Source: Escherichia coli
Lineage (GTDB): Bacteria > Pseudomonadota > Gammaproteobacteria > Enterobacterales > Enterobacteriaceae
Direction: 5' to 3' (one strand)
Assembly (NCBI RefSeq): GCF_003334405.1
Contig: NZ_QOWM01000035.1
DNA length: 3,274 bases
Shown here: piece by piece, positions 1,323-1,716 of the stretch
Position numbering within the stretch: position 1 is the first letter of the stretch
Layout: every line of letters starts with the position of its first letter
Program-made: the position numbers and the translations under genes
The notes under the pieces: generated by a model
The model's database searches: none
The model's input: the letters and a program-made list of their open reading frames with translations, nothing else
Told to the model about the DNA's origin: nothing

Positions 1323-1382
1323 TGTTTCATCGAAAGGGGAATGGCCCCTCTCACAATAGCCCAGCAGGGCAGGAGATTTAAA

Positions 1383-1682
1383 ATGAAATGCTCATCTGTT
1401 TTTACTTCAACCACTAATCATGTTTTCACATTCGAACGAGTAACGCTTTGCACTATTATCCTTATGCATAAGGATACGGGACAACAGTATGTTGTCATAT
1501 TTACTGATAACAATAAAATTCGTGACTATAAAACCGGAATTGTTCCTCAGTTTGGCGAACTTAAGCAGAGTGATGTTGATTTAGTCCTTTTCTACAGGGA
1601 CGAATATGAAAAATATTTTGATTCGTTAAAAGATGGCGATGAATGCTTGAGTTTTAAAGATTTTATTGAGTGCCTTCGTTAA
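1383..1682 (+). CDS. hypothetical protein (99 aa), first gene of the operon
   Basis: SD AGGAG at 1371-1375, 7 nt before ATG 1383. In frame with listed ORF 1341..1682, but the 1341 start lies inside the leader hairpin and lacks an SD. No family recognised. Confidence 0.55.
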   Translation: MKCSSVFTSTTNHVFTFERVTLCTIILMHKDTGQQYVVIFTDNNKIRDYKTGIVPQFGELKQSDVDLVLFYRDEYEKYFDSLKDGDECLSFKDFIECLR

Positions 1683-1690
1683 GCATTATA

Positions 1691-1716
1691 AATGCAGGGG
1701 GGAACCCTGCATTTTC
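1691..1716 (+). promoter_or_regulatory. intercistronic stem-loop (possible attenuator or partial terminator, or mRNA stability element)
   Basis: AATGCAGGG (1691-1699) pairs with CCCTGCATT (1705-1713) around loop GGGAA. A short U-run follows, then the SD of the next gene. Confidence 0.3.

Follow-up and report, generated by a model that had tools for sequence, protein, structure and literature searches.

The two hairpins pointed out in an earlier note on this DNA, H1 in the predicted 5' leader of gene 1 and SL1 between genes 1 and 2, are on balance best explained as separate RNA-level expression elements with different histories. According to this explanation, a standard cassette would head each leading-region operon of IncX4/IncI2-type plasmids and would comprise a sigma-70 promoter, an operator in the promoter spacer, and a 54-nt structured 5' UTR. 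As a 5'-terminal stem-loop, H1 would protect the mRNA from 5'-end-dependent decay, a second leader hairpin (H2) would set the degree to which the Shine-Dalgarno sequence (SD) is exposed, and a small plasmid HTH protein would probably shut the promoter off, giving an expression burst in the new cell. SL1, at the left edge of a slot for variable cargo, would terminate a fraction of the transcripts or protect the 3' end of gene 1, and either activity would leave the mRNA of gene 1 more abundant than that of the downstream cargo. The two hairpins belong to ordinary types of element, a structured 5' leader and a putative weak internal terminator, and stand in a conserved modular setting for which we found no description.

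Genomic setting of the window

The window, by which we mean the whole 3,274-nt stretch of E. coli DNA that was analysed, matches, at 100% identity and in reverse complement, positions 2991-6264 of NZ_CP070012.1, a 32.6-kb circular IncX4-type plasmid of E. coli FDAARGOS_1288. Close relatives of this plasmid were typed as IncX4 and more distant ones as IncI2, IncU, and rep_cluster_991, all with MOBP relaxases, and a search of a phage collection with the window DNA gave no match. On the + strand, a 180-aa gene, an 83-aa gene, and a 75-aa HTH gene are followed by a non-coding gap (935-1382) and then by genes 1, 2, and 3. Downstream of these are a strong hairpin, an ORF of 45 aa, and a terminator that acts in both directions, and then hicA and hicB. 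Beyond the window the plasmid carries ddp1/taxA and then the relaxase gene taxC. In the hicB-ddp1/taxC interval, approximately 300 bp past the end of the window, the minus strand contains the MOBP nick consensus TATCCTG|C, with a 21-nt inverted repeat immediately 5' of it. RP4-type origins of transfer are the model for assigning the transferred strand from a nick motif. As both the motif and the inverted repeat lie on the minus strand, we predict that this strand is the one transferred and that it serves as template for every + strand gene, with the position of the nick itself predicted from the motif and its setting. Given this predicted nick, the window would correspond to the first 0.3-3.6 kb entering the recipient, that is, to the leading region of the plasmid.

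The promoter-leader cassette

A consensus scan placed a sigma-70-type promoter upstream of gene 1 at 1294-1322 on the + strand (TTGCAA and TATTAT separated by 17 nt, 9/12), preceded by an A-rich stretch. Transcription is predicted to start at A1329 on the same strand, the A of a conserved CAT 7 nt after the -10, on the basis of promoter geometry and the conservation of this column (column 45) of the alignment. If so, the 5' UTR would be 54 nt long and would consist of AUC, H1, six unpaired nucleotides, H2, and AGGAG. Gene 1 (1371-1682, + strand) has its SD, AGGAG, at 1371-1375, its ATG at 1383, and its stop codon at 1680-1682, and encodes 99 aa. An in-frame ATG at 1341, within the loop of H1, would open a 113-aa ORF and was rejected as the start, being absent from most leader classes.

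H1 belongs to a 414-nt unit (970-1383) of which a second copy lies 2,075 bp upstream in the plasmid at 100% identity, ending at the ATG of a DnaJ-like gene. This unit has two separable parts, a GC-rich element on its 5' side (970-1269) and the promoter and leader on its 3' side (approximately 1285-1385). A regular expression for the promoter-leader part recovered 27 copies from 13 sources, of which one is the window and 12 are plasmid loci, and a covariance model with a cut-off of E below 1e-10 recovered 33 copies in 15 sources, 32 of them distinct. Scanning representative genomes with a pattern for diverged cassettes yielded one new variant, on a Pantoea plasmid; of the remaining hits, three were nearly identical copies on two contigs and two were due to chance. 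In the 33 copies, the -35 TTG (CTTG) and the -10 TATTAT are kept 17 nt apart and the sequence of the spacer changes. The A-rich stretch, the CAT 7 nt after the -10, and a GA-AGG at the 5' side of H1 are also conserved, as is CAGGAG, with an ATG 6-9 nt downstream. Over the cassette alignment, pairing occurred in 90.6% of cells, compared with 35.7-51.3% when the 3' partners were slid by 1-3 columns, and the observed covariation score was reached by none of 500 shuffles, figures that rest on four or five lineages of linked sequences and on an alignment fitted to the structure.

The genes headed by the promoter-leader are a 171-aa DnaJ-like gene, members of the gene 1 family (74-101 aa), and unrelated genes of 107, 77, 109, and 70 aa. 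The earlier note had proposed that the leader hairpin tunes expression within the operon of gene 1, a role that does not fit a promoter-leader found in identical form before the DnaJ-like gene and in related copies before at least six unrelated genes. Because an identical leader heads unrelated operons, it cannot set the level of gene 1 against those of genes 2 and 3.

The promoter spacer holds a palindrome, H0 (AATACGAC-TTAAGG-GTCGTATT, 1299-1320, assigned to neither strand), with arms at 1299-1306 and 1313-1320 and an overlap with the -10; neither H0 nor H2 had been noticed in the earlier note. Pairing in H0 extends to 99% of cells and three pairs change on both sides, so that four stem classes (ACGAC, ACATC, AGGTC, and ACCGC) all retain full symmetry. 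As its non-Watson-Crick pairs comprise two G-T and two A-C, its position is upstream of the predicted start and hence outside the mRNA, and the palindrome is perfect, H0 is a DNA-level element. Changes on both arms are what a hairpin would show, but equally what would be seen in a symmetric operator to which a dimer binds, and we therefore read H0 as probably an operator, with the 75-aa Xre/MqsA-like HTH protein encoded by the last gene of the upstream operon (707-934, + strand) as its candidate repressor. In 11 of 12 plasmid loci, the class of H0 goes together with the variant of the HTH protein encoded upstream, an association confounded by linkage, and homologues of this protein differ by palindrome class mainly in the helix-turn-helix stretch. 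The mosaic plasmid L009 has two palindrome classes and one HTH class in the stretch examined. A DNA hairpin is an alternative for H0, and the role of an MqsA/Xre-like HTH protein could be that of an antitoxin.

The KorA/KorB operators of IncP plasmids and ArdK of IncN plasmids are repressor-controlled zygotic induction regulons of conjugative plasmids. The arrangement around H0 resembles them in that one palindrome is repeated in several promoters and a small HTH protein is encoded in a controlled operon. It differs from them in that the HTH protein is MqsA/Xre-like and possibly an antitoxin, the operator role is putative, and L009 has mixed classes.

Leader hairpins and the strand on which they fold

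H1 lies at 1332-1352 on the + strand. Its core is letter for letter the one given in the earlier note, GGGG (1336-1339) and CCCC (1345-1348) around the loop AATGG (1340-1344), and RNAfold extends it with the outer pairs A1335-U1349, A1333-U1351, and G1332-C1352. The hairpin ends 22 nt before the AGGAG of gene 1, close to the distance of about 25 nt named before. Its folding energy is -9.6 kcal/mol (z = -2.3), and 4 of 200 shuffled sequences fold as well. The 4-bp G/C stem alone is unremarkable, and its significance lies in its conservation: H1 has 13 sequence variants, and its core pairs in 31 of the 32 distinct copies. One core pair is GC in 20 copies, GU in 8, and AU in 3, and the outer pair 49-67 switches between AU (28) and GC (4); two positions between the core and the outer pairs are usually unpaired. 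H2 (GCCC-AGCA-GGGC, 1359-1370, + strand), predicted by RNAfold directly 5' of the SD, has nine variants that all pair, namely GCCC/GGGC, GUCC/GGAC, GCCGC/GCGGC, and GCCCG/CGGGC along with two G-U intermediates.

Stable hairpins within 3 nt of the 5' end are a classic shield of E. coli mRNAs against 5'-end-dependent decay, and stabilising stem-loops of this kind begin no more than about 4 unpaired nt from the 5' end. As H1 begins 3 nt from the predicted 5' end of the RNA, our preferred reading is that it would act as an mRNA stabiliser. The hairpin in the 5' UTR of ompA is reportedly such a stabilising 5'-terminal stem-loop, and the two leaders are alike in having a stable hairpin a few nucleotides from the 5' end (predicted for H1), with an unpaired stretch and then the ribosome binding site after it. 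H1 differs from the ompA type in being short (a 4-bp core plus two outer pairs), in having a 5' end that is a prediction, and in belonging to a repeated cassette, whereas the ompA hairpin is part of the leader of a single gene.

It could also be that the hairpins act in DNA, forming in the transferred single strand during conjugation and serving, together with the GC-rich element, as a single-strand promoter or priming signal, so that they would matter for early expression or complementary-strand synthesis rather than in mRNA. The location of the window in the leading region and the minus strand as predicted transferred strand agree with this, as does H0, which would lie outside the mRNA. A further point in its favour is the GC-rich element (970-1269, assigned to neither strand), a structured non-coding stretch of 300 nt with approximately 60-67% GC that is repeated before each operon. 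Using positions 940-1300 as a blastn query (word size 11) against 72,556 plasmids, we obtained matches in 1,172 PLSDB records, with 2-5 copies of the element per plasmid, almost all of them unannotated. The first 135 nt on its 5' side are almost invariant, its DNA folds with z = -3.3 and -3.6, and no Rfam 15 covariance model matched anywhere in the window, even at E up to 1. Within the element, the hairpin at 1014-1036 covaries, and 11 copies show a mismatch in it that reads C-A on the + strand but T-G on the minus strand; being wobble-compatible on the minus strand only, this mismatch is a weak hint at folding of the element in the transferred strand.

The known single-strand promoters are likewise GC-rich relative to their plasmids (bioRxiv 10.1101/2025.04.03.647016). 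The GC-rich element resembles Frpo/ssi of F and ColIb-P9 and the ssDNA promoter classes of pESBL (Masai and Arai 1997; PMC11541004; PMC12672017) in position, repetition, and GC excess, as these too are structured, GC-rich, non-coding stretches of about 300 nt, repeated before leading-region operons, with the transferred strand as template; in the plasmid studied here, GC-rich elements precede each + strand operon templated by the predicted transferred strand. It falls short on two defining features of Frpo/ssi, sequence similarity and a promoter hairpin rebuilt in the single strand. No similarity to IncF/IncI1 Frpo/ssi was evident among the matches listed, which were IncX4/IncI2-type plasmids and their relatives, a comparison judged from the records matched by blastn. 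The minus-strand folds of the GC-rich region are multi-branched, with no long hairpin that would rebuild a -35 and a -10, and a consensus scan of 960-1330 found no promoter-like site on the minus strand. A promoter duplex of the Frpo type rebuilt in the transferred strand was thus rejected, as neither the folds nor the promoter scans show one. The cassette also differs from Frpo/ssi in having an ordinary duplex-type promoter downstream and leader hairpins, H1 and H2, that lie outside the element.

The strand of the wobble pairs argues against an action of H1 and H2 in the transferred strand. Non-Watson-Crick pairs in the core of H1 and in H2 are all G-T on the + sense, with a single exception (a T-T in the H1 core) and no A-C, a pattern compatible with pairing in the transcript but not in the transferred minus strand. 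The third pair of H1 in the class of the window is A-C, equivalent to G-T on the other strand, and it weakens this strand argument for the outer part of H1. The promoter-leader is also found without the GC-rich element, which is sometimes missing from an otherwise complete cassette (L006 2505). We consider an action of the hairpins in the transferred DNA strand unlikely, and retain the reading of H1 and H2 as structures of the transcript.

The intercistronic hairpin and the cargo slot

SL1 is located at 1690-1714 on the + strand, where AAATGCAGGG (1690-1699) pairs perfectly with CCCTGCATTT (1705-1714) around a GGGAA loop within a run of six G, with a U-run at 1712-1715. The stem-loop and short U-run described in the earlier note are thus present, and the stem has 10 bp instead of the 9 given there. 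SL1 folds with -16 kcal/mol (z = -3.1; 1 of 200 shuffles folds as well), and in first-order Markov simulations that allowed loops of 3-8 nt, the number of perfect 10-bp hairpins expected per window was 0.03.

Five of the ten pairs of the stem are G-C, and stem and loop are within the range of a canonical terminator (at least 5 bp, loop of 3-8 nt); the 8 nt directly after the stem contain fewer than the 5 U of a canonical U-tract. A consensus terminator scan of the window did not list SL1, because three of the four T at 1712-1715 are inside the full stem. In its best register (stem 1693-1711, tail TTTTCC), SL1 obtained a terminator score d of +7.3. The canonical terminator at 2640-2654 reached +15.1, and the internal terminator validated in the hicA-hicB spacer of IncI2 plasmids (L005) had -30.8; H1, H0, and SL2, a second stem-loop described below, had -77.5, -45.9, and -33.4. 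The score is a discriminant of the d'Aubenton-Carafa type, and its values are approximate. By this score, SL1 would be a borderline intrinsic terminator, and it scores above the validated hicA-hicB internal terminator.

In the IncI2 plasmid pHNSHP45 (p45), the hicA-hicB spacer contains a 9-bp G/C hairpin and UUU just before the next ribosome binding site, an element that reduces the downstream mRNA about 10-fold (Lin et al., Nucleic Acids Res 2025, PMC11878559). SL1 has the layout of this hicA(T)B terminator, with the hairpin ending at 1714, the U-run at 1712-1715, and the SD AAGGAG of gene 2 at 1721-1726. Both are G/C-containing hairpins of 9-10 bp between cistrons with only 3-4 U after them and the SD of the next gene within about 10 nt, they occur in the same leading-side region of the same plasmid backbone family, and the proposed outcome is in both cases more mRNA of the upstream gene than of the downstream gene. 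Their sequences are unrelated (GGCGGGGAU-UUA-AUCCCCGCC for hicA(T)B and AAAUGCAGGG-GGGAA-CCCUGCAUUU for SL1), and the stem of SL1 is the weaker of the two, its base being made of A-U pairs, although its U-run directly abuts it. The hicA(T)B terminator has been validated by deletion, whereas SL1 is known from sequence and folding. We regard SL1 as the likely 3' hairpin of gene 1, and since it shares the layout of the hicA(T)B element, partial termination is a fair expectation. Protection of the 3' end of gene 1 by SL1 is an alternative that would give the same outcome.

The stem of SL1 is identical in all homologues seen, which carry the same gene 1 allele, and the loop varies: GGGAA in the window, GCAT in L002, L003, L007, and seven metagenome contigs, CAGGAA in L008, and GGGGGAA in L021. 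A metagenome scan for variants of the stem always found it identical, with no compensatory change, and the sole argument for selection on its pairing is this invariance of the stem against a variable loop. As the length of the loop ranges from 4 to 7 nt and so breaks the reading frame, the region is non-coding. The frame shift also accounts for the two RefSeq versions of gene 2, one of 138 aa, which begins at an ATG within the stem and is found in some plasmids, and the one of 124 aa that begins at 1735 in the window. An ATG at 1692, in the stem, was rejected as the start of gene 2 for the same reason.

Gene 2 (1721-2109, + strand; ATG at 1735) encodes a 124-aa beta-strand repeat protein that matches phrog_3163 and is annotated elsewhere as DUF4097 or 'tail-associated lysozyme'. 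Gene 3 (2106-2417, + strand) encodes 103 aa from an ATG at 2106 that overlaps the stop of gene 2, with a RefSeq start at 2124, and had no family match. For gene 1, no family was found in Pfam, NCBIfam, or PADLOC, and its C-terminus matches phrog_2061, of unknown function. As searches of genes 1-3 with PADLOC, NCBIfam, PHROGs, and Pfam yielded only phage families of unknown function, a functional link among the three genes cannot be drawn.

What follows gene 1 differs between plasmids. SL1 is kept with two different downstream genes, gene 2 in the window, L002, and L007, and a different 116-aa gene in L003 and L008, where homology ends right after GCATTTTC. In IncI2 plasmids, an allele of gene 1 with a different C-terminus has the hairpin SL2 directly after it, and in L004, L005, and L009 the next hairpin comes straight after the gene 1 homologue, with a small ORF behind it. 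In the window, SL2 (2428-2457, + strand) is a stem-loop of 12-13 bp without a U-run (-20 kcal/mol, z = -5.3), and the IncI2 copies show a compensatory A-T to T-A change. Because SL1 stays with gene 1 and its followers differ, with SL2 beyond them, genes 2 and 3 fill a variable slot between two conserved hairpins, of which SL2 marks the right edge.

This arrangement raises the alternative that SL1 has no regulatory role, being the boundary of a cassette or the scar of a recombination where the cargo slot begins, and is conserved only through hitch-hiking with gene 1. The break in homology immediately after GCATTTTC, beyond which different cargo begins, the marking of the other edge by SL2, and the lack of compensatory changes in the stem would all be expected of a scar. 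A perfect 10-bp stem that persists through four forms of the loop would not, nor would a succession of stop codon, SL1, U-run, and SD that matches a working terminator of sister plasmids. We think a scar improbable, and prefer partial termination or 3' protection by SL1.

The earlier note had suggested that both hairpins together could set different levels for gene 1 and for the two genes downstream. Given the hicA-hicB precedent, SL1 as an attenuator makes such differential expression plausible, and the contribution ascribed to the leader drops out, since the leader also serves unrelated operons. The further suggestion that gene 1 is a regulator or inhibitor of genes 2 and 3 is not supported as a dedicated role, because many plasmids carry gene 1 without them. 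The downstream cargo has no conserved promoter of its own. A consensus scan found a promoter-like site inside gene 1 (1492-1519, 10/12); such sites occur at the chance rate, and this one could feed genes 2 and 3 independently, which would count against our explanation.

Exposure of the ribosome binding site

Across the copies of the cassette, the SD has a mean unpaired probability of 0.35. In class B leaders, those of IncI2 plasmids, a CUUCU just after H1 is predicted to pair with the SD across H2, which lowers the unpaired probability to approximately 0.1. From these folding predictions, H2 seems to set SD exposure differently between leader classes. H2 or the leader as an insulator that frees the SD whatever the cargo was rejected on the same values, the mean being 0.35 and class B sequestering the SD.

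A leader devoted mainly to translational control is somewhat less probable again than the two alternatives above. H1 would then gate ribosomes through alternative pairings with the true SD, its 5' arm being rich in purines and SD-like (GAAAGGGG, or GAAAGGAG in some copies) and its 3' arm anti-SD-like. The perfect AAGGAGG in the 5' arm of some copies and the paired SD of class B are consistent with such a switch, but the anti-SD stretch is missing from the class to which the window belongs, the minimum-energy fold consists of H1 and H2 with the SD outside both, and a trigger for the switch is not evident. Functionless inverted repeats arising by chance are very improbable, for however unremarkable the H1 core is by itself, conservation and covariation across 33 copies and the rarity of perfect 10-bp hairpins in simulated windows speak against them.

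Implications for plasmid establishment

The hairpins themselves are of ordinary types, and their value is as handles for experiments on reporters, stability, and termination and as markers by which the cassette can be traced in further plasmids; the more interesting part is the repeated cassette together with its GC-rich element. Full-text literature searches turned up no account of promoters or single-strand signals in the leading regions of IncX4 or IncI2 plasmids. It is tempting, if distinctly speculative, to consider that the 414-nt repeat is a previously undescribed early-expression cassette of the leading region of IncX4/IncI2 (mcr-1) plasmids, driving the zygotic induction of candidate anti-defence cargo. 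The GC-rich element would in that case act in the incoming single strand, as a priming signal or as a single-strand promoter of a new class, the operons would then be switched off through the palindrome and the HTH protein, and the leader would give every cargo gene the same stable, well-translated mRNA.

Plasmid establishment is decided by the first few kilobases to enter the recipient, and the colistin-resistance gene mcr-1 is carried mainly by plasmids of the IncX4 and IncI2 types. One promoter-leader cassette common to the leading-region operons, and variable cargo held between two conserved hairpins, together provide a concrete, testable map of how the early genes of these plasmids are expressed and where new cargo inserts.

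Leader, cargo slot and upstream genes

The leader classes differ in the predicted exposure of the Shine-Dalgarno (SD) sequence. In the IncI2-type leaders that we call class B (L004, L005, L007, and L009), the stretch CUUCU lies right after the leader hairpin H1 and is predicted to pair across the second hairpin, H2, with the SD AGGAG, leaving the latter an unpaired probability of about 0.1. This stretch is absent from the leader class of the window. An ATG within the H1 loop (1341-1343) shares the reading frame of gene 1 and would extend it to a 113-aa ORF, but it is unlikely to be used as a start because it is missing from most other leader classes. 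Within gene 1 itself there is a perfect 20-nt palindrome with zero spacer (1457-1476, TATCCTTATG/CATAAGGATA).

The cargo slot is variable and is bracketed by two stem-loops, SL1 (1690-1714) and SL2 (2428-2457). The loop of SL1 carries a G run of varying length, with six G in the window (1697-1702) and eight in a metagenome contig (L021), while elsewhere GCAT or CAGGAA takes its place. Due to this variation the annotated start of gene 2 shifts between plasmids, giving products of 124 or 138 aa; the differences in the G run could reflect either slippage or sequencing error. SL2 is a strong hairpin of 12-13 bp (-20 kcal/mol, z = -5.3) that lacks a U-run and shows a compensatory change in the IncI2 copies. 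It is followed by a conserved 45-aa ORF (2492-2629), a bidirectional terminator (2637-2657) and, directly after the latter, a perfect consensus promoter (TTGACA-17-TATAAT, 2665-2693) that, judging from its position, is placed to drive hicA-hicB.

At the opposite end, the deletion primer used for cds16 of the IncX4 plasmid pHNSHP23 matches a 180-aa gene (2-472). Transposon sequencing scored cds16 as required for transfer, and deleting it reduced transfer roughly 4-fold, a change that was not significant (PMC8725589). An 83-aa gene and a 75-aa MqsA/Xre-like HTH gene then follow (469-934), overlapping each other by 14 nt, and together they look like a pair of toxin-antitoxin style. A TsxAB system, a possible identity for this pair, has been reported in IncX4 plasmids (Bustamante and Iredell 2019, as cited in PMC11594946).

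A repeated GC-rich element in the leading region

About 300 bp past the end of the window, the plasmid's own locus (L001) carries a probable oriT (9555-9640), recognized from the minus-strand nick motif TATCCTG|C (9576-9583) and the inverted repeat GGACAATCTACTGAAAATTGCA / TGCAATTTCTAGTGGATTGTC directly before it on that strand. This putative oriT places the window in the leading region, where each operon is preceded by a copy of a structured, non-coding, GC-rich element of 300 nt (970-1269 in the window and again at L001 4895-5194). The two 414-nt units that contain it (970-1383 in the window) are 100% identical to each other within this plasmid. When 970-1383 was compared with L002, L003, and L009, the GC-rich part shared only ~86% identity with the orthologous IncX4 copies, as against 98% for the promoter-leader part, and up to 95% with the copies in L009, an untyped MOBP mosaic plasmid. 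Taken together, these identities suggest that the two copies were recently homogenized, with a breakpoint near 1269/1270.

Across 1,172 PLSDB plasmids the element occurs in 2-5 copies per plasmid, with hardly any variation in the 135 nt at its 5' end. Rfam gave no match to it, and no homology to Frpo/ssi was evident among the PLSDB matches listed. We consider the GC-rich element a candidate signal that may act in single-strand priming or as a single-strand promoter.
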